A DNA stretch of 21,339 nucleotides from a candidate division FCPU426 bacterium (GTDB lineage Bacteria > Oederibacteriota > JAAXVQ01 > JAUVAV01). The position numbers and the translations under genes are program-made. Where the stretch lies: positions 1-21,339 of the forward strand of contig DAOWGI010000118.1 of assembly GCA_030637655.1 (NCBI GenBank), given 5' to 3'. The notes beneath the pieces were generated by a model that saw only the letters and a list, made by a program, of their open reading frames with translations, was not told where the DNA came from and did no database searches. This document shows, in pieces, positions 895-18,274 of this stretch (within the stretch, counting starts at the first letter, position 1; each line of letters begins with the position of its first letter).

Positions 895-1071
895 GATTTT
901 CTCCTTCCAACAGGGCAAGCATTTCATTCTATTGGCTGAATTATACATCAATTTAATAATTGTTTGAAATGATTTCCCGAAAGGTGAATCACGAATCGCA
1001 AAAAGAGTTGACAGGGACGTTCTTAGAATAACAGGTTAAAATCTCCCCCTATGTTACAACCCCGCCTATTC

Positions 1072-1093
1072 GGGCGAGGTGACCTCGCCCCTA
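1072..1093. repeat. GTAG-type REP palindrome split by the IS110 insertion
   Basis: GGGCGAGG-TGA-CCTCGCCC-CTA; the final C of the CTAC foot is displaced to 2457. Confidence 0.8.
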
Positions 1094-1104
1094 TCTATGG
1101 GTAA

Positions 1105-1110
1105 TGTCAA
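1105..1110 (-). promoter_or_regulatory. -35 box (TTGACA) in the IS110 right end; half of a circle-junction promoter
   Basis: Perfect TTGACA pointing out of the element. It would lie 18 bp from TAGAAT (2444-2449) once the element is circularised at the CTA core. Confidence 0.7.
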
Positions 1111-1122
1111 CCCCCAATATGG

Positions 1123-2268
1123 TCAAGCGGTGGATGGATAATCTTTCCACCCCATAACATTTTTAGCTAATCGTGGTGCAGCGTTCTGTGGGCACCGTCC
1201 GTAAGCTTGGTGCAACAGGCTGCGAAATTTAAAAACTAAATATTTTGATCTGGCATGTTTGAAAACTTTATTATCCTTCAACATTTGCCAAATGATTTCC
1301 AAAAGATGTCGGGCAATTGCCACGATCGCTACGTTATGCGTTTTGCCTTTACGGCGAAACCGATGATAGCGATCCTGGATCGGGCCGGGCGTCATGGTGG
1401 CGGCATTAGCGACTTCCACCATTATCCAACGCAGCAGAGAACGTCCCTGTTTGGTGATGGAACCATAAAATACTTTGTCGCCCGATCCAATGACTGATGG
1501 TACTAGTCCGGAATAACTGGCCAGTTTTTTTGGAGAGTCAAAACGACTAACATCTCCAATGGCTGATGTAATAATCAAAGCAGCTTGAGCTTTAATCCCG
1601 GGCATGGTCATTAATTTAAGACATTGCTCATTTTTCAAAGCTTCGGAGGCAAGTTCCTGATCAAGCTGATGTATTTCGGTTAAAAAACTTTGCCCGATTC
1701 TGTAATTGGAGCGCCATTGTTGTTTACTAAATTCAGGTAGCGAAGAGCGTTCAATATATTCTAAAGCTTTTTGATCAAGAATATCCTGGCTTGTATAGTC
1801 CAGACCGTGACGATAGAGTATGCTTCGGAGTTGATTGCGCATTGATACGACATGCCTAGCCAACGCGTGGCGATGAGAAGCCAACTCTCTTTTAGCTCTG
1901 ACTTCTGGTGTGGGGACCCAGACTTTATGAGTATAACCGCTGGCTAAAGCACGGGCTAATTTCAAGGCATCAAGCTTATCGGTCTTTTTGCGTGAACAGG
2001 TGCGATCATGCATGCCCAGCATATGAGCAATCTGCACTTCTCCAACTATAGGAGAAAGCTGGTTATAAACATGATAACTGTTACCCGTTGCTTCGATAAT
2101 CACTTGGTCCTCTTTGCTTAAATTTTCTGTCGCCCAGCGGGGCAGATTCACCATGAGTATGGTGCCGCTGGCTGATACTTCGCCTTTGCGGTTAACAATT
2201 GCAAAACTGGCCGTTTTTTTATGGATATCCAGGCCGATAAATCGGGTATAATGCTTTTGTTCTAACAT
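1123..2268 (-). CDS. IS110-family transposase/bridge recombinase (DEDD RuvC-like domain plus C-terminal Tnp domain)
   Basis: Motifs FIGLDIHKK, IIEATG, KKTDKLDA, MPGI, RFDSPKKLASYSGLVP..GSG, GSITKQGRSLLR, AIVAIARHL. Likely start is ATG 2268 after an AAGGAG RBS. Confidence 0.96.
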   Translation of the reverse strand: MLEQKHYTRFIGLDIHKKTASFAIVNRKGEVSASGTILMVNLPRWATENLSKEDQVIIEATGNSYHVYNQLSPIVGEVQIAHMLGMHDRTCSRKKTDKLDALKLARALASGYTHKVWVPTPEVRAKRELASHRHALARHVVSMRNQLRSILYRHGLDYTSQDILDQKALEYIERSSLPEFSKQQWRSNYRIGQSFLTEIHQLDQELASEALKNEQCLKLMTMPGIKAQAALIITSAIGDVSRFDSPKKLASYSGLVPSVIGSGDKVFYGSITKQGRSLLRWIMVEVANAATMTPGPIQDRYHRFRRKGKTHNVAIVAIARHLLEIIWQMLKDNKVFKHARSKYLVFKFRSLLHQAYGRCPQNAAPRLAKNVMGWKDYPSTA

Positions 2269-2304
2269 GTAGTACTCCTTTCTGCGAGGTGAGGTTAGTT
2301 TAGA

Positions 2305-2437
2305 GAGGGTTGTGCGAGACAACTATCTATACGGGCTCTATGGCCCAAAAAAGTTGGTCGCGGGGGCCACTTACAAAACGGGGTTATCTTCACCCAGTAG
2401 GGGCTCGGCCTCCCTCTCGCTTCCCGGTTACTTCTTC
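2305..2437 (-). ncRNA. Putative bridge RNA (target-binding and donor-binding loops) in the IS110 left end; ends approximate
   Basis: Two stem/internal-loop/hairpin units. One contains GCCCCUAC (2397-2404), identical to the target; the other contains AUAGAUAG (2323-2330), matching the donor junction CTATCTAT at 1091-1098. Confidence 0.75.
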
Positions 2438-2443
2438 AACTCT

Positions 2444-2449
2444 ATTCTA
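2444..2449 (-). promoter_or_regulatory. -10 box (TAGAAT) at the start of the IS110 left end
   Basis: Lies 4 bp inside the left end, directly upstream of the putative bridge RNA. Confidence 0.65.
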
Positions 2450-2501
2450 ACCTCTACTCCTGATTGGAGGAATTACATTAACCATACCCTTACATCCTGG
2501 C

Positions 2502-2526
2502 GGGCAGGTTTGGAACCTGCCCCTAC
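2502..2526. repeat. GTAG-type REP palindrome
   Basis: GGGCAGGTT-TGG-AACCTGCCC-CTAC. Confidence 0.85.
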
Positions 2527-2551
2527 ATTCTTTACCGTGAACCTTATTGGT

Positions 2552-2959
2552 TCATGGTCGCTTGCCTACTGCTTTCTTAAATTCCTTAAATGCCGCTTCT
2601 ACTGCCGCCCAGCGTCTGTTCATGTCTTCTCGATACGCTATCCAGTTTTCCTGTGTCTGCAAACTTATTCTATTTAAATTCGATTCGAAATTGTCTTGTG
2701 TTTTCGCAAACTGCTCACTGCTTTCCAGCCATTTTTCCTTGGCCTGATCAGATAGTCTCAAACCACTCCCCTGGAGCATTTCCAAGCGCATCTCCAGGTT
2801 TTGTAGTTGTGCCCGCATATCCGCCTCAAAGACCCTCACTTTTTCTTGAAACCGCGTATCTGACATTTTATTAGTCTGTGGAGCTGGTCCACATCCTGCA
2901 CCTATTCCTAACAGACCAATACACAAAAACGTTGTGACTATTTGATACATTTTTTTCAC
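2552..2959 (-). CDS. Putative lipoprotein, helical/coiled-coil, function unknown
   Basis: GTG at 2959 (or ATG 2950) follows a GGAGG RBS. Basic N-terminus, hydrophobic stretch and lipobox-like GAG-C, then heptad-rich E/K/Q/L helices. Confidence 0.75.
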   Translation of the reverse strand: MKKMYQIVTTFLCIGLLGIGAGCGPAPQTNKMSDTRFQEKVRVFEADMRAQLQNLEMRLEMLQGSGLRLSDQAKEKWLESSEQFAKTQDNFESNLNRISLQTQENWIAYREDMNRRWAAVEAAFKEFKKAVGKRP

Positions 2960-2997
2960 GGCCTTTCCCTCCCATATACATGATTGTGGACAGAGTC

Positions 2998-3096
2998 GGG
3001 CAGACACGCAGGTCTGCCCCTACGGCTTCGGGCGAACACAAGGTTCGCCCCTACAGCATTATCGGGCCCATCAGGGCGGGGAAACCTCGCCCCTAC
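2998..3096. repeat. Cluster of three co-oriented GTAG-type REPs (2998-3023, 3030-3054, 3074-3096)
   Basis: GGGCAGAC..GTCTGCCCCTAC, GGGCGAAC..GTTCGCCCCTAC and GGGCGGGG..CCTCGCCCCTAC. Confidence 0.88.
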
Positions 3097-3590
3097 GGCT
3101 TATTATGCGGCAGGCTGTAAATAATTTCAAAGCTAATTGCAGGCACCATGGCGATGCCATCTGAAAACTCCTCCTTAAACCAAGGATTGATAAAAGCCGG
3201 GATATATATGATCCCTATGTTCGCGGAAATATCAAAAGCCGGAGTTATAGACTTTGATATTCCAAAATCCAAATGAAGGTCAATGATGCCTTGGCCCTCC
3301 CCGCGACCCCTAAAAAACTCCCAGTAACCAATACCTGCCTGTATAAAGGGGGACCATTTTTTTATTATAGTATACCTATAGTTTGATTCCACTCTAAGGA
3401 TTATTCCCGGAAACCCGCCTATAGACAGGTTGAGAGATGACGTGTCATCCAATTCCAATTCACCCACAGCGGAAAAACACGGCCCTCCGGAGAATCCCAT
3501 TTTCACCCCGATTCCGGCATCCCCGGCCTGCGCGGTGTTTATGGTCAATAATAATAATAAAAAAACAATACCAAATTTGCTAATAAACAT
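3093..3590 (-). CDS. Exported protein, probable small outer-membrane beta-barrel
   Basis: Signal peptide ending AQA. Alternating amphipathic strands (SPFIQAGIGY, LHLDFGISK, DISANIGIIY, ISFEIIYSL). Confidence 0.7.
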   Translation of the reverse strand: MFISKFGIVFLLLLLTINTAQAGDAGIGVKMGFSGGPCFSAVGELELDDTSSLNLSIGGFPGIILRVESNYRYTIIKKWSPFIQAGIGYWEFFRGRGEGQGIIDLHLDFGISKSITPAFDISANIGIIYIPAFINPWFKEEFSDGIAMVPAISFEIIYSLPHNKP

Positions 3591-3630
3591 TTTATCCCCC
3601 TCCGGTCTACGCGAATCCCATTTCCCCGCA

Positions 3631-3705
3631 GGGCGAACATACCCAAAAGACGGGCACAGGCAAGATTCGCCCCTACGTCTTTGGGCGTATGCAATACGCC
3701 CCTAC
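3631..3705. repeat. Two GTAG-type REPs (3631-3676 with expanded loop; 3683-3705)
   Basis: GGGCGAA...TTCGCCCCTAC and GGGCGTAT-GCA-ATACGCCCCTAC. Confidence 0.82.
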
Positions 3706-3817
3706 GTTATTGTACCATCAATTCAATCTCCCTGATATTCGAGTGATGCTGTCGGCCTGCTTTGCCGGGCGCAAGTGAACGTCTCCTATTTCACATAGCA
3801 CGATAAACTGCTACACA

Positions 3818-6800
3818 TCACGCGGCGGATTTGAAGGAATAGCGTAAAGGGTACCAGCGAGGGTCAAGCTTGCGCCTGTCAATTTCCAGTTCCAAATAAT
3901 TCAGAATATCCAGATAAACGCCCAGTTGCCGTATAGTGACCGCATCCGGGATCCAGAGTGTTTGTTCATTGTTCCTTAGTCCACCATTTTCCAGCGGTAT
4001 TGGCTGACGCATCCGGGCAGGCATACATTGCATAATTTCATTAAACGTTACCAGCATATCTTCCAGTTCATCTCGTGCCGCCTGTTTCAACGGTCCTTTG
4101 GGCAGGGCCTGAACCTTGGAATAGGTATCTGCCAGCATCGAAAACATTTCAGTAATAAATTGTTCGGCATAGCGGCGATTAATATGGCGCGCAAAATTGA
4201 TCGCGGTTTTTTGAACCGGCGTCAACGCGTTTGGATTAAGCACCGCATAGGCTAGCGCTGATTGCGTCAATTCGCGGCTGATACGCGCATTCACCGCATC
4301 CAGATCGGCATGAAAACGCATAGTCTGGGTCCAAAGCGCGGCCTGGGCAAGCAGCGCGGCGATTTGATCGGTTTCTGACTGGAAAAACACGGCATCCGGC
4401 AGAAAGAGATCAAGCGTTCCCTGCTTGCTGATAGCATACGCACCTAACATATTACCTTTGGCAATATGTTGTAAAAAGGTCCTGCTCATTTCCGAGAGAG
4501 GCCGCACCCGGATTTGATTGGTATCAAACGAACGGGCGCTTAGGGGAGTATTTAGAACAGCCTGTTTTTCCCCAAGATTCAACCGTCTTATCCGGGGTAT
4601 TTCTTTTTTAGCTGAGGTTCCCTGACGCCTGGCAACCAACAGCAATCCCGTGCCTTGCAGTAGTCCGGGCAAGATATTCAAAACAGGCGCAAGCGGTGAA
4701 CGCAGCCGTAAAACAGGACGCATCAGGAATTGGTAGACGCGCAGCCGGCCGGGCCGCGTGCCTGTGAAAGAACGGTTGATGATCGAATCCGGCAAAAGCA
4801 TATCTTGAGTAATAGGTTCTGTCAGGGGCGTGTTGGTCTGCTTGATATTTTTAGCTGAATTTCCCTTCAGACGCGACCGAATACTACGTGCCCACTGGAT
4901 CAAGGTCCATACAACAGGAGCATGTTCCATAAGAGTTGCCCAGGCATGTCCTCTGCCCAAAGATTCCATTAATTCATGTGTCAGAATCCTTTTTTGCAGC
5001 CAGGCTGGGAAGAAAAGCACTGTTGGCGAAATCAGCACCTTGCCGGATTCACCCCAGCCGATCCGGTGGTCCAGAAAAAGGCCATGCCGGCTTGCAGACT
5101 GCTGAAATACGTCCTGCCACCTTTCCGGATAATCTGCCAGCTTGTCCCACTCTATGGGTTCTCTGGTAAGCAGACCCAGCTTTGTCTGTGGAATATCAAG
5201 ACCGCGTCTTTTCATCTGTTGAATAACCTCGCTAAACAACGATGCGGTCTGTGCCTGTTTCCGGCGCAACATGACTGAAGACATAGTTTCGATAGGAGGC
5301 ACGGCATTATGATATGCCCAGTAAAGCAGACGCAGCAGATGAGCTATCAGACCGCCCAGCAATCCGGTAATCCCCATCATGGCTAGGGATATATCCCAGG
5401 GCAGCATGGCGCTAAACACAGCAACTGTAAGACCAATCCTGCTGACGCGCAAAAGGATTGCGCCCAGATTGACAATCAGGTTGCCATCCTTAGGAGTGAC
5501 AATCGTTTTCAGTTCGTCAAAACTACCTCTGTCTTTATTAATATTATTGAACCTATTAATAGCCTGCTCCGAAGGCTCTCCCGCCAATATTCCGAATGGG
5601 ATTGGTTCTGATTCACGCTTTTTTTTCTTTGCCTTTTTCTGGACTCCCTCCCTAATCCTGGCATCAATTTCAGCCTGGCTATACTTCGGCTTCTTGTAAC
5701 CTATCACGTTTTTCACCGCAGCGGAGATAAGCTCAAAGTCATCCTCTGTGTGATTTTCAGCCTTTTGGGCCAGATAGGCTTCTGTAACCTGCTGCAAGGT
5801 AATGTTCTTGGCCTGTTCCTTAATCTGACTTTTATGCAGCCGTATTTCTTCTTCTTCATGCAATGTTTCCAGCAGTTCGCGCAATACGACTGTCTGAAGA
5901 CCGTTTGCGCTTCCCTGTTTGGCAAAAGCTTTTGCCGTCTCATACTCAATCAGATTCACCGCTTGCAGCAAGCGAACCAGACTTGGCACATCGGCAACAA
6001 TGATTTTTTCAGGCTCGGGCATGAGAACGGTCTCTTCCTCTGGTTTCGCGGCCACAGCCTCATTTTCGTTCGCTTCCTGAGCCGGGAGTACGGGCGAAAA
6101 CTGCTCTTTGGTCTCGCTGGACCTTGCAAGCGCAGGTTCCGCAATTGCCTGTCTAACTTCTCCAATGGTTCCTGCCGGCACTTCATCCTGCAGTAAAATT
6201 CCAACCAAATACTGCTGGATCTCTGTATCAGCAGATTTGAATTTCTCTTGCCATTTATGAATGGCATCCGACAGCTTGGTATCTTTGGTTAGAAAAGACG
6301 TATAGCTCGGCAAGAGAGTTTCCAAGCGGCTGCGGAGAGTTTTGATTGTGGCTATTGGCATGCTGCTTCGCACCCAGCCTAGGGCTGATTCCACCAATGT
6401 TTTATTCTCCGAATATTTAACTGCAATATATAGAATGTTCTCCAGGGTTGTTTTCTCGGATAATTTCCGCCGATATATGCGCTGCAGGCCTTTGTCCTTT
6501 TGCAGCAAATCCGAATCCATTGCCATCACCTCGTCAAACTGCGGTGGATTGCGCAACACATATTCAATAATCTCATATTCAGCGCCGAATTTTTCCAGAC
6601 GCTGGACCAGGTCCTTGATCTCAGCCACTGATAACGGCGATGCAATCATAGCCACGATAGTTGACATCGTCCGCTCGCAAAAGAAATCAACAATATCCAG
6701 AATATCCTTATCCGGTCGTGCGTTGCGCAAGATGGTGTGCAACAGTTGTCCGGAAATTTCAATCTTTTTGCGTTTCTGGACCATATATAATTTTTCCAAC

Positions 6801-9800
6801 AGCTCGAGTTTGGCATGAATTTTATGAATAGAAAGTTCGCGGCGCATCGTATCAATATGTCCGTCAGTTATGTCGAACAGAGGCTGCGCATGGATCGCCT
6901 TCATAATAGTCTCAACCAGCAATGGTTCCACTGCAGGATCGGTCTTGATTTTTTCCTTTAGCGCCGGAACAGTACCGATGTCCGATAATTTCAGTTTATT
7001 CCTAACTTGCGCAAAGGATTCCTGCTCATTTAAAAGCCCCTGCCGGCCGAATGCCTCGATAATCTCCACAAATTCTTCTGCCATGTTTTGCTTGCGCAAA
7101 GCAATCACAGATTTTATATAAGATTTACACGCCTTAATGGTCTTGATTTGATTGGCCTTCTTTGCGAGAAAATGTTTTTTGATTTCAGCAATGTTCAGCC
7201 TATATTTAAAGACTACCGGAAAAATATTCCTCTTGTAACCTTTGGGAGCCAATTGCGGCAACAGATCCAGCATATCCTCTATGGGATGAACGCTGGCCAC
7301 AATTATTTCAATATCGGTCTTGTGCAATAAACCGAGATTACGCAGTTCCTTTAACAATGCAATTAATTCAGCAGAGGGCTTATTGGAAACCAGCAAATTT
7401 TTGATCATCGTCCGCGTATAAAAATCGTCCTTAGCATCACTCGTTTGTGCGATATAATCAATTATATCCAGTTTGAGCAAAAACTTGGTCCAGCCTGCGG
7501 CCAGCAGGCTGTTTTTCATATCAGTGGCAAACTGTCGCTTCTTCTTATCGGCAATTATCGGCAGCTGCATGTGATCCAGAATCGCGGAGAATACGGTCAC
7601 GTGGTTTTTTCCGGACATACTCATACCATCCAGTTGCTGCCTGACACCCTGGCCCTCGATCCAGCCGTGTTTGTCCAGCAAATTTAAAACACTTTCAGTC
7701 TGCCGGCCCAGCTCATCCGAAGCGGAGATGGCCGGCACACCTTTGGCAATACGCAATGCCTGCTCAATATCCTTGGCCGCGAACCCGCTTTCTGAAAGCT
7801 CTTTAATCATAATTGACAAATTTCTCCGGACCCCGTCTGCCTCCAATTGATGCACAGCATGCAGAGTCTTGCCCAGTTTAGGCGAGAACATGGCAGCTCG
7901 CTCACGGCCGGCCAGCACACCCATTACCACATAGCGGTCATACTCATCCAGGTTTTTCAGTGCGGCCAGTTCCCCGGAATACTGATCAGCAGTGCCTGCC
8001 TTGAGCAAAAACACTTCCCGCACAGCCTTGGACACAGCATCCCTGTTTTCCTTGCTCAGCGCCTCGCTTAGCAGTACCTGAATATCCCGGGAAGAGAGAG
8101 GTGAATGTAGGGAATGATTAATCCGAATGATTTCAGCAATATCCGCCAGCGAAGCCTGGCGCTCGGTCATTACTTTGAAGATCCGATTTTTCTCTTCTTT
8201 AGCAGGCAGCTTGGCAATGGCTTTGAAAACCGTATCCAGGAATTGGTCAGAAGTTAAATTTGCCAAAGCCTTTTGGTAATACTCTTGATAGATGCCATGG
8301 TTTTCTAGCTGCTCGAGAATGTGATCAATCCGCTCCTGGGAACGTCTGCTGCGAATGATAGCAACAACGGTTTTGCCGGATTGTTCCTGTTCTAACAAGT
8401 ATTTATATATAATCTTCCGTTTTTCCTCAACATCCTTGATTCCCCGCAGCGCCATCTCAAACATAATCCGCGTTATATTCATGTCGTATTTGTTGATTCG
8501 GAGCATATCAATGAGAAGCGGTATATTCCGCAGTAGTGTTTTCAGGGGTAGCCGGTTGCGGATATCAGTCCCGGGCCCGAGCGCGCCCACGGCGAATTCA
8601 GAACGTTGTATTGTATTGACTAATTTTTCAATGACTTGGGCATCGGTCTCTGCTTCAAGCACGCGCACTTCATTTATGACCTCATTCGCCTCATCCTTTG
8701 ATATAATTTTGTTATTAGCCAATTCATTAAGAATTACCTGCGCCTGCGCTTCACGTTTCCTTATCTCCGCCTCTTTATCCCTATACTCTCTAATAAGTTG
8801 CGGGATATGATCATAACGGTTTCTCCAATTGGGACACTGTTCCTTAATATCATTCGCGTTCTCTCCCAGGAAAGTTCGGGTGACACCTGTAACCGGCACG
8901 GCGCTCCTGACAATCTTCATCACAGTCGACTCATCCTGCCAGGTTTGCATTAATGGCCTGACTATCTCTCTCAACTCCTCATATGAGCGTCCGCTATTGA
9001 ATATCCAGGCAGCCGCCATTCCGGTAATGCGTTGCTCAGGCTCTTCATGATCCAACAGCTTGTCAATCACCGGCCGGAGTCTTGTTGCATCATGGCTAGT
9101 GCGGAAATACGACTGCAACAGACTGCCTGTGATAAACCCTTTCTCCACATCCGCCGGCAAAATGACCTCAAAAATATCCATTTTATCGGCAAATCGGAAG
9201 AATCCGTGAGCGTGAACCATTTGTGCCTGGGTTTCCGAAAAGATAGGCTTAAAATTATGGCTGCTATGGCCGATGTTTTTGATAATGATGCCCAGATAAT
9301 AATCAACTGTGCGGTTGATCTCAGGCACCTGTGACAGTTTGAATTCGATTGCGCTGCGGTTAAGCCAGCCATAATTGGAGAGCTTGTCTATAAGGTCGAT
9401 TATTTCATCCGGCAAGATCAAAGGATGGCGCGGGCATACCTGGGCAATCGCTTTTTCGATTATTATTGGAGAAAAGTCTTTATTCATGAGCACCTGGTAC
9501 AGGAGAGGCTCGTTTTCTTCCTGGACCCACTCCGGATGTTCTTCAATAATCTCTTTGGCAGTTGTGACACATGCTTTCAGTTGCGGGCTATCAGTCGCGT
9601 ATTCCAACACTGTCGTCTTGGTCTTGGCCGGCACACTGGCATTCATTGCCGCAGGCCCGGCGCCCATCATGCCCAGCACACGCAGCCACACTGGAAAATC
9701 TTCCGGGCTTTGCAAAACCGCCTTATGATATTTAAAGTGAAAATACATGGACGCAGGCCGGCTGATTATGATGATAGTGGTAACCGCGGCTGCCATAGGG

Positions 9801-12800
9801 GTTACGGCAAAAGCCGCCAGAACAATGCCAAAATAAAACCAGCCATAAAATACCAGCCCGAGAAAATATAAACGGCCCCAGTTTTTTATCCTGGCCGGCC
9901 AGGTTTCTAAGCGCATCGGCACAATCTTGATTTCCTCTGTTTCCGGATTACATTGGACTTTAAAAACTCCAAAACCATGACCCAGGGCATAAACCAGGTT
10001 GGTCAGCAAAACCGCTGCCAACATGGTGATCCGGGGATCAATAGGCAGGGCATTGAACGCTACGACGAGCCTGGGGCCAACTATATAAGTAACCCACAAG
10101 GATTCAACCAGCGGCGCGGTGTACTTGGCGTTGTAATCAAAAATTTCTTTCTGTGACAGGCTCCTGCCCAGGATGCGCGGCATGATTTCTTCAGTCAGCC
10201 GGATCATGAAGTGATACATTCCCAACACAACCCCGAATTCATCCTGCTTGAGTTTTGCTGTTCGGAGACTCAATTTTTTCGCCAAACCACCGCTTGTCAG
10301 GCTTTTGAGGACCACGACGCATTTAGCCAAGCCAACGCGCAAATAATCCCTGCCCCACTGGATCAAAGTCCATACAACAGGAGCATGTTCCATAAGAGTT
10401 GCCAGGGCATGTCCTCTGCCCAGAGATTCGATTAATTCATGTGTCAGAATCCTTTTTTGCAGCCAGGCGGGGAAAAAAAGCACTGTTGGTGAAATCAGCA
10501 CTCTGGCGGATTCGCCCCTGCCGATCCGGTGGTCCAGAAATAACCCCTGCCAGGCTTTAGGTTGTTGAAATATCTCTTGCCACCTTTTTGGACTATCTGC
10601 CAGCGCGTCCCATTCGATATTTTTTTTGGTTAGCAGGCCCAGATCTGTATTTGGGATATCAAGGCCGCGTCTTTTCATCTGTTGAATAACCTCGCTAAAC
10701 AACGATGCGGTCTGCGCCTGTTTCTGACGCAACAGACTTGGAGACATTAACGCGGGTGGGGGCACGGTATTATGATATGCCCAGCAAAGCAGGCGCAGTA
10801 GATGAGCGATCAGGCCGCTCAGCAATCCGGCAATTGCCGGCATGGCTAGGGATATATCCCAGGGCAGGATGGCGCTAAACAGAGCAACTGCCAGACCGAT
10901 CCTGCTGACGCGCAAAAGAATTGCGCCCAGATTAACAATCAAGTTTCCGCCTTCAGGAATGACCCCCATTTCAAGATCGCTAATACTATCCACTTTAGTA
11001 TTAATAGTCTGGAATGTGCCATTATTCTTTTCAACCGGGTCTATATCTCCAGCACTAAAATCCGGTAAAATTCCGGATTTTAGTGCTTCCAATCCATCTT
11101 CATTTGTCGCTGCATAGTCTTCCTTATTACGCCTGAGTTTAAACGGCTTACGCTTCTTACGCTGGGACTTGGTTAATCTTTTCATTGCAATAGAAATAAG
11201 CGCTGAGTTATTATCCGTGCCATATTTAGCCTTCAGTGCCAGATAGGTATCTATAAGCTCCTGCAAGGTAAGCTTCTTGGCATGTTTCGCAATATCACTG
11301 CTAAGCAGAAATATTTTATTTTGTTTACTGAATGTTTCCAGCACTTCTCTCAGTACAACTCTCTGAAGACCATTTGCGCTTCCATTTTTGGCAAAATCTT
11401 TGGCTGTCTTTTCATTAATCAGATTCTCCTTTTGCAGCATGCGCACCAGACTGGGCACATCAAGAACACTATTTTCTTCAGCCTCGGGCTTGACAACAGC
11501 CTTTTCCGCTGGTCCCGCGGCAACGGTTTTTTCTGCACTCGATTCCTGAACCGCGACCACTTCCTCGGGCTGGTCTTTGGTCTTGCTGGTCTTCGCAATC
11601 GTCGGTTCCGGATCCGGCCGTGCATATGACGCTAAAACCCAGTCAATAATAAAACTGTCATGTCCTTTTTGCCGCAACCACGCGCACATGGTTTTCATAT
11701 CCGTCGCAGGATCTGCTCTTCTTAATTCAAAATAATCATACAGGCATTGTGCCCGGTAACCGGGTATAATTTTTTCAGCGATAATTGCCTCTCTCACCTC
11801 TCCAATGGTCTTTGCCGGGATCTCAGCCTGCAGCAAAACATCAACCATATCCCACTGAATTCCTGTACCAGCAGATTTGAATTTATTTTGCCATTGAAAA
11901 ACAGCAGCCGTATCCGGCTCTTTGGGCTCTTCTTTTACCAAAGACGTTTCATCCGGCTCTTCAGTATCTTCATCCGGCTCCTTGATATCTTCGGTTTCAA
12001 AAGGCGTATATCCAGGCAAGAGAGTTTCCAAGCGGCTGCGAAGGGTTTTGATTGTGGATATTGGCATGCTGCTTCGCACCCAGCCTGTGGCTGATGCAAC
12101 CAATTTTTCATTCTCCGGATATGTAGCCGCAATATATAGAATGTCCTTCAGCGTTGATTGCTTGGATAATTTTTTCCGATATATGTACTGCATATGTTTG
12201 TCCTTTTGCAGCAAAGCAGGATTCATTGCCATGACCTCGTCAAAACGCTGCGGATTGCGCAATACATATTCAATAATCGCATATTCGGCACCATGTTTTT
12301 TCAGACACGGGACCATGTCCTTGATCTCAGCCACTGACAAAGGAGAGGAAATTATACTTTTAATCGTCTCCATAGCATATCCGGAAGCAAAATTAATAAT
12401 TGTCTGAATATCTTCATCAGCCCTTGCGCTGCGAATAGCAGTGTGCAACAGCCATCCGGAAAGTTTTATCCTCTTTCGTTTCTGGACCACATATAATTTT
12501 TTCAACAGGAAGCGCTTGGCATAAAGTTCATGAATAGACAGATCGCGGCTCATCAACGCGATAGGGCTATCATTTATATTAAACAAAGACTTCGCTTTGA
12601 TCGCCCGCATAATACTCTCAACCAGCAATGGTTCCACTGCAGGATCAGTCTTGATTTTTTCCTTCAGCGCCGGAACAATACCGATGTTCGATAACTCCAG
12701 TTTATTTCTGAGTTGCGCAAAGGTTTCCTGTTGATCTAAAAGCTCCTGCCGGCCGAATGCTTTGACAATCTCTACAAATTTTTCTGCCATGTTCTGCTTG

Positions 12801-15800
12801 CGCAACGCAAGCACAGATTTTACAAAAGTTACACATTCCGCTTTAATCTCGAATTTTTTGGCCTTTTTCGCGAGAAAATGTTCCTTTATTTCGGCAAGGT
12901 TAAGCTGATATTTAAAGACTGTCAGAAAAATATTCCCCTTATAACCCTTCGCAGCCAGTTGCGGCAACAACTCCAGTATGTCCCCTGTGGAATGGGTGCT
13001 GGCCACAATTCTTTCAATAGCGGACTTGCGCAAAAAAACGAGATCACGCAGCGCCTTTAACAATTTGATTAGTTCAACCGGGGACTTCCTGGAAAGCAGC
13101 AGATTTTCAATTGTTATACGTGTATAAAAACCGCCTCTGTCATCAGGCGTTTGCGCGATATAATCAATTACATCCAGTTTTAGTAAAAATTTGGTCCAGC
13201 CCTTGGCCATCAGATGACTTTTCATTTCAGCAGTAAAATTCCGCTTCTCTTTATCAGTAATTATCAGCAGTTGCATGTGATCCAGAATCGCCGAGAATAC
13301 AGCCGCGTGGTTCTTCCCGGAGATACTCATGCCATCCAGTTGCTGCCTGACACCCTGGCCATCGATCCAGCTGTGCCGATCCAGCAAATTCAAGACCTTT
13401 TCAGTCTGCCTGCCCAACTCATCCGAAGTGGAAATAGCCGGCGCCCCTTTGGCAATACGCAAAGCCTGCTCAACATCCTTGGCCGCGAACCTGCGCTCTA
13501 AAAGAAGTCTGAACATGAGCGCTGAATTTGTCTGAATACCGTCCGCCTCCAAATGATGCACAGCATGCAGCGCCTGGCCAAGTCTGGGCGAGAACATGGC
13601 AGCTCGCTCACGGCCGGCCAGCACACCAATTATCACATAGCGGTCATACTCATTCAGGCTTTTCAGCGTGGTCAATTCCCCGGAATACTGGGCATCTGTG
13701 TTGGCATTGGGCAGAAACACTTCCCGCACAGCCTTAGACACACCATCCCTGTTTTCCTTGCTCAGTGCCTCGCTTAGCAGCACCTGGATATCCCGGGGTG
13801 AAAGCGGCGAATGTTCGGAACGATTAATTTGGATGATCTCAGCAATATCCGCCAGCGAGGCTTGTCGCTTGACCATTGCTGCAAAGGCCCGGTTTTTCTC
13901 TTTTTCAATGGGCAGCTTAGTGATGGCTTTAAAAATTGTATCCAGGAATTGGTCGGAAATTCCATTTGCCAAAGCCGGTTGGTAATACTTTTGACGGATG
14001 CTGTGTTTTTTAAGCTGCTCTAAGATATGATCAATACGCTGCTGGGAACGTCTGCTGCGGATGATATAGAGAAGTGTTCTAGTGGATCGATCCTGCTCTT
14101 GCAAGTACTTGTGGATAATCTTCTGTTTTTCCCCAATCTCCTTGGTTCCCGCTAAGGCTGCCTCAAAAACCGGACATGAAATGAATCGGCGGGATTTATT
14201 GATCTTGATCATATCAATCAAGAGCGGCATGTTCAGTAAAAACCGGTTCAGTGTCATTTGATTGCTATCAAATCGCAGCTTAGCTCCAGGCATGAGCGCG
14301 CCTGCGGTGAATTTAGGATTTTGAATGGTTTTGACCAGCACTTGAATCACCTGACCATCGCTCTCTGCGTTTAGCGCACGCACTTGGTCCATGGCTTTAT
14401 TCGCCTTATAGTCTGAGATAATTTTCTTCTTAGCCAATTCATCTAGAATTTCCTGTGCCAGCGCTTCGCGTTTGCTTATTTCCGCTGCATTATCCCTATA
14501 TTCTCTGATAAGTTTCTTAATGTGGTTATCACAGTCTGCCCAATTGGTATGCTTTTGCTTTATTTTTTCCGCTTCATCACCCAGAAAATTTTGGGTGATA
14601 AACTCAATAGGCAAGGCACTAGTGACAATATTTTTCACAAGAGACTGATAATACCAGGTTTTCATCAATGGCTTGACAATCTGTTTCAACTCAGCATACG
14701 AACGTCCGCTATTGAATATTCTGGAAGCTGCTATGCCGGTAATGCGCTGCTCAGGATCATCATGATAAAACAGCTTGTCAATAAACACGCGGAGTCTTGC
14801 CGCATTATGACTGGTGCTGAAATACAACTGCAACAGATGGCCTGTGATAAATCCTTTTTCCACATCATTTGAAGTAATGGCCTCAAAAATATCCATTTTG
14901 TCGGCAAATCGGAAAAATCCGTGCGCGTGAACTATTTGTGCCTGGGCATCTGAAAAGATGGGCTTGAAATTATGGTTTTTATGGCCGATGTTTTTGATAA
15001 TGATACCAAGATAATAATCTACTGTGCGGTTGATCTCAGGCACCTGTGACAGTTCGAATTCAATTGCGCTGCGGTTAAGCCAGCCGCAATTGGAGAGCCT
15101 GTCTATAAGACGGCTTATTTCATCCGGTAAGGCCAAGGGTTCGCGCGGACAGACCTTGGCAATCGCTTTTTCGATTATTATGGAAGAAAAGTCTTTATTC
15201 ATGAGCGCCTGGTAAAGGCGCGGTTCGTTTTCTTCCTGGATCCAATCCTTATGCTCTACAATAATCTTCCTGGCTGTTGTGACACAGGCCTCCAGTTGCG
15301 GACTATCAGTCTTGTATTCCGGCACTGTTGTCTTGGTTGGCGCGTAAGCGCTCATGTCCTTAAGCCCGACGCCCATCATGCCCAGCATACTCAGCCCAAA
15401 CGGAAATTTTTCCGGATTTTGCCAAAACGGCGTTGCAAACATGCCAATTATTCCGATGATGACAACAGCCGCGGCACTGTAAATAAAAATTTCATTACGC
15501 GACATGCTCTTGGCCCGCGACTCGTAAAATTCATACACCAGCGATCGGGCCTGTGCCAATAAAGGGGTTAGCTTGCGCAGTTGTCCCACCAGGACCGGCA
15601 GGAGCCGCCAGGCCAGATAAAGTCCTACAGTTTCGTGCAGATTCAAATCCGCCAATGAACGGGTTGGCATGGAATCCAGCATGACTTGCACCTGTTTTCG
15701 ATTTTCCGGCTTAATCAGCATGATATATTCGTTCGGAAATACGGCTTTTCTCAGGATATCTTCTTCCTTAAGCCTTAGGCGCTGCTTGCCCGTACAGACC

Positions 15801-17881: not shown

Positions 17882-18274
17882 TCACCCATAATCCGAATTC
17901 AAAATCTCTTTGATCCTTCTTTTCAGGTCCTCCAACTCAAAAGGCTTTGGCAAACACGCTGCCACGCCCAATCCGTTGGCATAGGCAATCAATTCCGGTG
18001 TCAACATGGAGGTGTATAAAATTATTTTAGGGTGGACATCATCCACGGACGCAGCTAGCAGCGCCCCTACGTTATTGATCCTCTTTATTAATTCCAATCC
18101 ACTCATCCCCGGCATATTCATATCCGTAATTACCAGATCAGGTTGAATTAACTCCATCAGCCCCAGCGCCTCTTCCCCAGACCGGGCAGTATGGACCGTG
18201 TACTCGTCTTCCAAAGCATGCTGCATAGCTTCGAGTAGGATATCGTAATCGTCGATGATGAGGATATTTGGCAT
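17882..18274 (-). CDS. Stand-alone CheY-like response regulator receiver protein
   Basis: ILIIDD acidic pocket, PDLVITDMNMPGMSG (phospho-Asp), IILYTS and LPKPF; no output domain. Start is ATG 18274 or TTG 18280. Confidence 0.93.
   Translation of the reverse strand: MPNILIIDDYDILLEAMQHALEDEYTVHTARSGEEALGLMELIQPDLVITDMNMPGMSGLELIKRINNVGALLAASVDDVHPKIILYTSMLTPELIAYANGLGVAACLPKPFELEDLKRRIKEILNSDYG
18047..18070. repeat. GTAG-type REP copy inside the receiver-domain gene
   Basis: GGACGCAGCTAGCAGCGCCCCTAC: an imperfect palindrome with the GCCCCTAC foot, encoding VGALLAAS. Confidence 0.7.

Follow-up and report, generated by a model that had tools for sequence, protein, structure and literature searches.

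The window analysed here is a 21,339-nucleotide stretch of a candidate division FCPU426 bacterium (contig DAOWGI010000118.1 of GenBank assembly GCA_030637655.1; the genome, a draft of 120 contigs, is called G000 below). It very probably contains one intact, RNA-guided insertion sequence that belongs to the IS110 family, broadly defined, and lies in the foot of a repetitive extragenic palindrome (REP). The element occupies 1094-2490 between two copies of a 2-bp TA core and measures 1399 bp with one core counted; its gene lies on the minus strand. An initial annotation of the same DNA had already named an IS110-family element lodged precisely in a REP foot. Both points stand, while one end, the core and the guide of the element are revised below.

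The transposase/recombinase gene (1123..2271, minus strand) is an open reading frame of 382 codons that runs from an ATG at 2271 and includes the stop at 1123-1125; the product has 381 aa. It matches PF01548 (E 2.1e-13) and PF02371 (E 1.7e-21), both halves of the IS110-family transposase, as well as the NCBIfam model NF033542, "IS110 family RNA-guided transposase" (212 bits; cut-off 140). The catalytic motifs are intact: GLDIH (D14), IEATG (E59), KTDKLDA (D97 and D100) and GSG (S262). S262 aligns with the catalytic serine region of IS621 (PDB 8wt6) in an alignment that covers only the C-terminal part (E 8e-6). Judged by its protein sequence, the element belongs to the IS110 family in the broad sense, with a predicted DEDD/Ser recombinase. 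The closest plasmid-borne relatives are 33-36% identical and are annotated merely as 'IS110 family transposase'.

Ends and core of the element

The ends were set by comparing several copies. The principal comparison genome, G002, is of the same family as G000; the body of its element is absent from its assembly, so that only its ends are usable, and the full copy of this type comes from a metagenome record, L047. Because the flanks of L047 are those of G002 contigs C39 and C37, it is not counted twice; G002, L047 and L049 are treated as one population and counted once, and L048 contributes an additional upstream junction. A protein search of four genomes (G002, G005, G008 and G003) gave no match, and a pattern search of genome contigs for related loci gave 28 matches, none of them a relative.

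The two window junctions, GCCCC-TA-TCTATGGG and ...ATACCCT-TA-CATCC, have TA alone in common, and the element bounds are placed at 1094-2490 for this reason. On the side of the right end (RE), the core lies at 1092..1093, and the junction GCCCCTA|TCTATGGG (1093/1094) recurs on contig C77 of G000, in 10/10 G002 copies and in the single G008 copy; ten G002 contig ends share ...TTGACATTACCCATAGATA, followed by GGGGC and then by differing sequence. The RE itself (1094..1122, minus strand) is 29 nt long, ends ...TTGACATTACCCATAGA on the gene strand and is common to the ten G002 copies, G008, L046, L047 and L049. On the side of the left end (LE; 2272..2490, minus strand), which comprises 219 nt conserved in six sequences from three lineages, the core lies at 2491..2492 in the window, as it does in the G002 and metagenome junctions and in those of sequencing run X5. 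Nine G002 contig ends have common sequence through ...TTATTTATACCCTTAC / ...GATTGGAGGTCCGACATTATTTATACCCTTAC and diverge only beyond it, and L047 and L048 place the end at the same point. The LE end reads ...ATACCCT-TA-C (2490/2493), with 2493 as the C of the foot, in nine G002 copies, two metagenome copies and an X5 contig. Since the G002, L047, L048 and X5 copies all stop there, 2490 is the true end. TA is kept in all junctions compared.

Run X5 contains a stand-alone contig of 1404 nt that corresponds exactly to window 1087-2493, i.e., GCCCCTA, the element and TAC. This form is 97% identical to the window (42 differences in 1404 nt), and its depth is 98.7 against 5.66 for the flanks, or about 17 times the flank depth. 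Subterminal inverted repeats of 12 nt, 92% complementary in a repeat search, lie just inside the ends, with the RE arm at 1096..1107 and the LE arm at 2475..2486.

This anatomy departs from the one first proposed, in which the element ended at 2453, a 3-bp CTA stood at both junctions and 2457-2492 was host DNA. CTA is indeed present at 1091-1093 and 2454-2456, and joining there likewise yields GCCCCTAC. However, 2457-2492 travels with the element in 9/9 G002 ends, in L047 and L048, in the remnants from G005 and contig C35 of G000, and in X5, X6 and X8; the X5 repeat contig stops at 2493; and the LE arm of the inverted repeat falls, together with a -10-like box, within the supposed host DNA. 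The earlier anatomy is therefore scarcely credible. Its left junction (1093/1094) is retained, but the other (2454-2456) lies 36 nt inside the element, where CTAC at 2454 is a coincidental internal match, and in the other copies this end differs from the one that had been proposed, an outcome listed in the initial annotation as refuting.

Excision of the element in silico gives GGGCGAGGTGACCTCGCCCC-TA-CATCCTGG... (that is, GGGCGAGGTGACCTCGCCCC-TA-CATCCTGGC and then the next REP). The foot GCCCCTAC is restored and ends in CTAC, so the precise insertion into a REP foot at GCCCC-TA-C survives the correction of the ends. The insertion is site-specific and duplicates nothing beyond the short TA core, as expected of the IS110 family.

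Two solo LE fragments without a gene were also observed, at C35:44293-44395 of G000 and at L002 (G005:C4:7469-7621). Both begin TA-GGGGTAT rather than TA-AGGGTAT, such that the end itself reads like a target foot. The C35 fragment is without exactly the target-loop stretch (window 2366-2440).

REP feet as insertion sites

The interrupted REP is the hairpin GGGCGAGG-TGA-CCTCGCCC followed by C (1072..1091, plus strand), an 8-bp hairpin that ends GCCCC (1087-1091) and forms the left half of the target; its stem recurs at three further REPs of the genome. The right half (2493..2526, plus strand) consists of the foot C, then ATCCTGGC, and then the intact neighbour REP GGGCAGGTTTGGAACCTGCCCCTAC. All seven further plus-strand octamers listed by the initial annotation (2519, 3016, 3047, 3089, 3669, 3698 and 18063) are confirmed. 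Beyond the neighbour REP, they comprise three tandem REPs with unoccupied GCCCCTAC feet at 3016, 3047 and 3089 (3016..3096), two REPs with unoccupied feet at 3669 and 3698 (3669..3705), and an octamer at 18063..18070 that has a degenerate stem only. Tandem REP clusters of the window span 2497-2526, 3000-3096 and 3650-3705. The sole minus-strand GCCCCTAC of the window, at 2397-2404, lies within the element.

Across G000, GCCCCTAC occurs 616 times (334 on the plus and 282 on the minus strand) against 23-65 copies expected from mono- to fourth-order Markov estimates. The Markov expectations were used because a reversed-pattern control is a poor null (CATCCCCG is itself present 266 times in G000). 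A stem of at least 6 bp terminated by GCCCCTAC is present in 496 of 611 scorable copies, mostly with a span of 19-22 nt and with variable stem sequence. These repeats are a real REP family, i.e., short imperfect palindromes in hundreds of copies, clustered and with a conserved foot, and the earlier description of a heterogeneous family belonging to this genome is borne out. E. coli REPs have a GTAG foot. Four matches to PF01797 (Y1 transposase) occur in G000, at C87:11898-12236, at C82:7689-8012 and on C49 and C60; they are possibly REP-associated tyrosine transposases (RAYT) or IS200-like. None of the four loci is flanked by GCCCCTAC on both sides within 1.5 kb.

Copies of the element lie in such feet. 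Seventeen distinct RE-side junctions were available for the window lineage (the window, C77, ten from G002, and one each from G008, X5, X6, X8 and L046), and 16 of them read TA-GGGGC, L046 alone falling outside. Every GGGGC-type flank long enough to fold opens a hairpin at GGGGC (13/13), and the 13 stems are all different. LE-side flanks carry C at +1 in 13/13 and a purine at +2 in 13/13 (A in 10, G in 3); in the background of 496 G000 REPs, A and G each stand at +2 in 192, T in 80 and C in 32. On the REP strand, the target reads hairpin-GCCCC|TA|C(A/G).

Several REPs deserve mention in their own right. Of two records with the palindromic REP GTAGGGGCGCAATAGCTTGCGCCCCTAC (L066, which is G002:C63, and L048), one has the element in the left foot of the palindrome and the other has it, reversed in orientation, in the right foot. 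A composite REP subfamily of about 50 nt, GGGCGAACATACCCAAAAGACGGGCACAGGCAAG(G/A)TTCGCCCCTAC, is found at window 3627-3676 and on G000 contigs C27, C57, C86, C103 and others, with at least 10 copies or near-copies. The X5 junction, which has a REP like that at window 3652-3676, was considered as proof of an occupied 3669 site and was set aside: three other G000 REPs are identical to it, and the window REP is 1 base off.

The window insertion is intergenic, between two minus-strand genes, and the promoter-like site of the gene downstream (968->940) is unaffected by it. The REP foot may be a "safe harbour" target, as the initial annotation suggested. Further along the window, 3818-17476 on the minus strand is a single open reading frame of 4552 aa with two mutually similar halves (an internal duplication of about 2000 aa) and hydrophobic stretches.

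Putative RNA guides in the upstream region

The LE would encode a bridge RNA or seekRNA. Six such ends, taken from three lineages, were aligned with a mean column identity of 80%, and the proposed fold has a small 5' hairpin, a long-range closing helix and two internal loops. The first loop is closed by GGCC/GGCC and has a GGG(U)...(A)CCC hairpin at its apex; the second has a GGGC...GCCC hairpin. In this fold 94.9% of cells are paired, against 35-57% when the partners are slid by 1-3 columns, and 5 pairs are changed on both sides, against 0-2 when slid; none of 500 shuffles attains the observed values. The closing helix varies in step across the three lineages, as UAGAG/CUCUA, UGGAG/CUCCA and UCGAG/CUCGA. 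As evidence for a folded RNA, this conservation is supportive rather than strong.

The loops contain segments complementary to both halves of the target and to the RE half of the donor, as described for bridge RNAs and seekRNAs. On the 5' side of the first loop, target guide 1, GCCCCUAC (2397..2404, minus strand), is perfectly complementary to GTAGGGGC of the gene strand. On the 3' side, target guide 2 is UUUUGUA followed by a handshake-like AG (UUUUGUAAG; 2370..2378, minus strand), in the same sense as the flank-TA-LE junction ...TTG-TA-AG. Because guide 2 has the sense of that junction, it is predicted to pair with the other strand across the same core. Its last two bases, AG, match the element's own end; the handshake logic follows that of IS621 in the available text of Hiraizumi 2024 (PMC11208158). 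In the second loop, a donor guide, AUAGAUA plus G (AUAGAUAG; 2323..2330, minus strand), stands on the 3' side and matches the RE end ATAGA-TA and the first target base G; among the five sequences long enough to include this guide, it does not vary. The initial annotation had proposed a single guide octamer that covers the invariant foot but leaves the variable stem unread. The octamer guide is present in the upstream end and does cover the foot alone, given 13 stems among the 13 GGGGC-type flanks, but it is one part of a bipartite guide together with UUUUGUA-AG.

A relative of the element in genome G072 (55% aa identity) has CACCCUAC at the guide 1 position, and its target reads TA-GGGTG, as TA-GGGTGAGGG, in 8/8 copies, with ...GGGAGAGGG-TA on the opposite side in 8/8. 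Compared across these sequences, guide and target vary jointly between lineages, GCCCC/GGGGC against CACCC/GGGTG. G072 contains 123 copies of CACCCTAC, a count that includes those within its 8 copies of the element. The target of its element is a composite repeat, ...CCCTCGCCCCTTG(C/G)GGGAGAGGG-TA-GGGTGAGGGGTG...CACCCTCACCCC (L069-L076, L052-L067), with the insertion point between two dissimilar GC-rich hairpins; this composite repeat is a second REP-like family, serving the sister element as target.

The joint change bears on another explanation, namely that REP specificity comes mainly from recognition by the protein or of the DNA hairpin and that the upstream GCCCCUAC is incidental. The RNA reads just 8-10 bp or so, and the GGGGC-type flanks form a hairpin without exception; the target stem-loop of ISPpu10 adds specificity (bioRxiv 10.64898/2026.03.19.712850); and the element's own perfect octamer at 2397-2404 has no hairpin and bears no sign of self-insertion. 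Against this, guide and target change together, and the guide sits in a conserved internal loop beside a segment that fits both the handshake bases and the opposite flank. RNA guidance has, moreover, been demonstrated experimentally in both branches of the family, known since 2024 according to the available text of Durrant 2024 (PMC11208160) and Siddiquee 2024 (PMC11187229), and a structural gate would add to a guide rather than replace it. We consider an incidental guide unlikely and retain RNA guidance as the basis of target choice.

The mechanism that we propose for the element takes its frame from the available portions of Durrant 2024 (PMC11208160), Hiraizumi 2024 (PMC11208158) and Siddiquee 2024 (PMC11187229). 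The 219-nt LE would be transcribed as a bridge/seek RNA, in whose first loop GCCCCUAC would pair with GTAGGGGC on the gene strand and UUUUGUA with the other strand across the same TA, effectively reading 1-3 further bases; the AG that follows would supply the handshake with the element's own end, and AUAGAUA-G in the second loop would recognise the other end. Once the element has been excised as a circle, a promoter for both RNA and recombinase would arise where its ends meet. The putative -35 box, TTGACA (1105..1110, minus strand), is read from the sequence by analogy, and the putative -10 box, TATGGT on the gene strand (2481-2486), lies within the LE arm of the inverted repeat. Joining RE to LE brings TTGACA (1110-1105) and TATGGT (2486-2481) together with a spacer of 17 nt (11 nt of RE, TA and 4 nt of LE); G002-type copies have TATAAA in place of TATGGT. 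Within 2272-2492 of the integrated copy, no sigma-70-like promoter is predicted on the gene strand. This agrees with the junction promoters reported for IS621, ISEc11 and ISPpu10, and by analogy with these the circle junction would drive expression. The DEDD/Ser recombinase would then exchange strands at TA and place the element in any REP foot.

Several observations weigh against this account. L046 has the same guide 1, yet its RE flank is TA-TTGTCATGG and forms no hairpin, the one exception among the 17 junctions. It is a metagenome contig with 90% protein identity, an altered second guide (UUUCGUAAG), an RE junction at about 1375 and the other flank missing; its flank, neither REP nor hairpin, may be due to insertion off target or at a half match, or to rearrangement afterwards. 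The guide variants seen number two, so that two lineages supply the evidence for guide and target changing together. As a single sequence, the RNA folds modestly better than shuffles (z = -2.1), and a search of Rfam with window 900-3800, both strands, at E <= 1, matched no family. RNAalifold offers an alternative pairing for the U-run, with AAUAGAGUUG, which was not adopted because the CUCUA/UAGAG-type closing helix covaries in three lineages. Two candidates in the LE RNA were weighed as a donor guide for the LE side, and neither was accepted: ACUUUUUU, 5' of the second hairpin, has two G.U wobbles and a core mismatch and stays constant despite the changed G072 donor, and in ACCCU[CUC]UA, further 3', CUCUA instead pairs with UAGAG in the closing helix. 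There is one full copy in G000 despite 616 sites. No precise empty site was found in the four runs or the genomes compared, none of which is of the same genus. No circle junction was seen among the runs, which consist of contigs and are unable to show circles, and no RNA runs containing the stretch were found, all runs recovered being DNA contigs.

The only contig that skips the element (run X5, record 7) joins 987 to 2511. It is also without the REP, 106 nt of flank and 18 nt beyond; it is diverged, with 3 and 15 differences in pieces of 88 and 190 nt, and its intergenic region is 1523 nt shorter (988-2510). We rejected it as an excision product because the REP and flank are missing and the form is diverged, which makes it another intergenic variant.

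Separately, the apical hairpin of the target loop (2379-2396, minus strand) and the RE end with its inverted repeat (1098-1114) show 76% complementarity along 17 nt, in L047 as well as in the window. The G072 apical hairpin has an exact 11-mer, ACGAAGACCCC, in common with its LE repeat arm (L018 LE). This likeness could be chance or could mark a donor-reading element.

Family placement, mobility and significance

Within the family, the element combines traits of two branches. The long non-coding region upstream (LE 219 nt, RE 29 nt) is a trait of the IS110 group. That group has no subterminal inverted repeats, or repeats of 2-3 bp, but here they measure 12 nt at 92%, and in the G072 relative 17 nt at 82%. 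The guide order also departs from that of the IS110 group, since guide 1 is complementary to the gene strand and UUUUGUA has the same sense as it. Conversely, the ends of the window lineage, TA-AGGGT|ATGGTTAATGT ... ACATTACCCAT|AGA, can be read with the 7- and 3-bp extensions and an 11-bp repeat of the IS1111 type; terminal extensions in G072 are longer, which limits the 7/3 rule to the window lineage. The available text of Siddiquee 2024 (PMC11187229) gives subterminal repeats of 11-13 bp with 7- and 3-bp extensions as the IS1111 hallmark, places the top-strand complement first in IS1111 seekRNAs and reports the reverse order in the IS110-family element studied there; for IS621, the bottom-strand guide comes first in the accessible parts of Durrant 2024 (PMC11208160) and Hiraizumi 2024 (PMC11208158). 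The IS1111 arrangement, with its non-coding region and seekRNA downstream, is not found here, the RE being just 29 nt and the RNA-like region lying upstream, and the protein of 381 aa is outside the IS1111 range of 330-350 aa. On these sequence traits, the element is a mixed form with an IS110-type upstream RNA region and IS1111-type subterminal repeats and guide order. In the same phylum, relatives of about 30% identity are short at the upstream end and long at the downstream end, and their subterminal repeats are clear, e.g., ATGAAAAAG/CTTTTTCAT.

Three known systems are the closest for comparison. As far as the excerpts available describe it, IS621 of E. coli likewise has a DEDD/Ser recombinase, an upstream RNA in each of whose two loops both strands are read across a core of 2 bp, handshake bases that follow the second guide of each loop on its 3' side, and a junction promoter with the -35 box in RE; it inserts in the ...CCTAC foot of REPs (wild-type target ATCAGGCCTAC; Durrant 2024, PMC11208160). 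It differs in its CT core, TA here shifting the cut by one base within the foot, in the opposite guide order relative to the gene strand and in a protein of 326-328 aa rather than 381 aa; the element described here also has 12-bp subterminal inverted repeats. Given the inverted guide order, the REP hairpin adjoins RE, the gene-distal end, unlike in IS621, where it adjoins the RNA-bearing end. The initial annotation had taken IS621 as the analogue; REP targeting by the family is upheld, but the 12-bp subterminal repeats and IS1111-type guide order argue against IS621 as the best match. ISPa11 and the IS1111 group share the 11-13 bp subterminal repeats, the 7/3 extensions and the top-strand-complement guide first, and ISPa11 targets a P. 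aeruginosa REP (Siddiquee 2024, PMC11187229, in the text available); their long non-coding region is downstream of the gene and their protein has 330-350 aa, whereas the region is upstream here and the protein has 381 aa. The same text names ISMtsp17 as an exception in the IS1111 cluster with an upstream region, a likeness drawn from that description and not from sequence comparison. In ISPpu10 of P. putida (bioRxiv 10.64898/2026.03.19.712850), the left target read by the guide is the 3' stem arm of a REP, a conserved stem-loop that lies 5' of the arm is better preserved in structure than in sequence, and there is a junction promoter; its core is CT, its pairing logic is of the IS621 type, and its insertions are all in near-identical REPs, whereas the stems here are heterogeneous.

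We tentatively suggest, as a possibility short of an even chance, that the lineage is a natural hybrid of the two branches, with an IS1111-type donor and an RNA moved upstream as in the IS110 group; the RNA would read a foot of about 8 bp, the variable DNA hairpin would be the structural half of recognition, and the apical hairpin might read the donor end. If the hairpin is indeed a second half of recognition, this would explain both the 13 different stems in use and the escape of the hairpin-less octamer at 2397-2404 from insertion.

Several studies of cold seeps and marine sediments have metagenome runs whose contigs include related forms. It is conceivable, though on balance doubtful, that the window copy is a quiescent or dead resident that arrived once and is no longer mobile in G000. 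Besides the full copy, G000 holds two decayed fragments among its 616 sites, a 224-nt piece of the gene-distal end on C77 and the internally deleted upstream end on C35, and the integrated copy has no promoter-like site for the RNA. On the other side, the reading frame and all catalytic motifs are intact, a 97%-identical form stands at about 17 times flank depth in X5, and G002, with 135 octamers, has at least 10 copies of an 80%-identical form. Further copies may also be left unassembled in the 120-contig draft, and low expression while integrated is normal for the IS110 family in the sources available. Present activity of the window copy seems plausible.

REP targeting by the IS110 family has reportedly been known since 2003-2006, from work attributed to Choi (2003) and to Tobes and Pareja (2006). 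It is by now established (Durrant 2024, PMC11208160, in the portions available; ISPpu10, bioRxiv 10.64898/2026.03.19.712850). What is added here to an already-known lifestyle is modest, i.e., a very short guide used on many hairpins and a mixed IS110/IS1111 anatomy. For annotation, the window is a reminder that one can be misled by a short repeat that looks plausible at both "junctions" and that ends should be set from several copies.

Overall, the element adds an uncultured cold-seep lineage, one that has a REP family of its own, to the range of REP-targeting, RNA-guided insertion. With one guide on at least 13 hairpin stems, and a two-base guide change in the sister element accompanied by a matching target change, it offers a natural data set that bears on the minimum guide length and on the contribution of the hairpin to specificity. 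The mixed IS110/IS1111 anatomy, finally, helps to trace the shift of the RNA from one end of such elements to the other.

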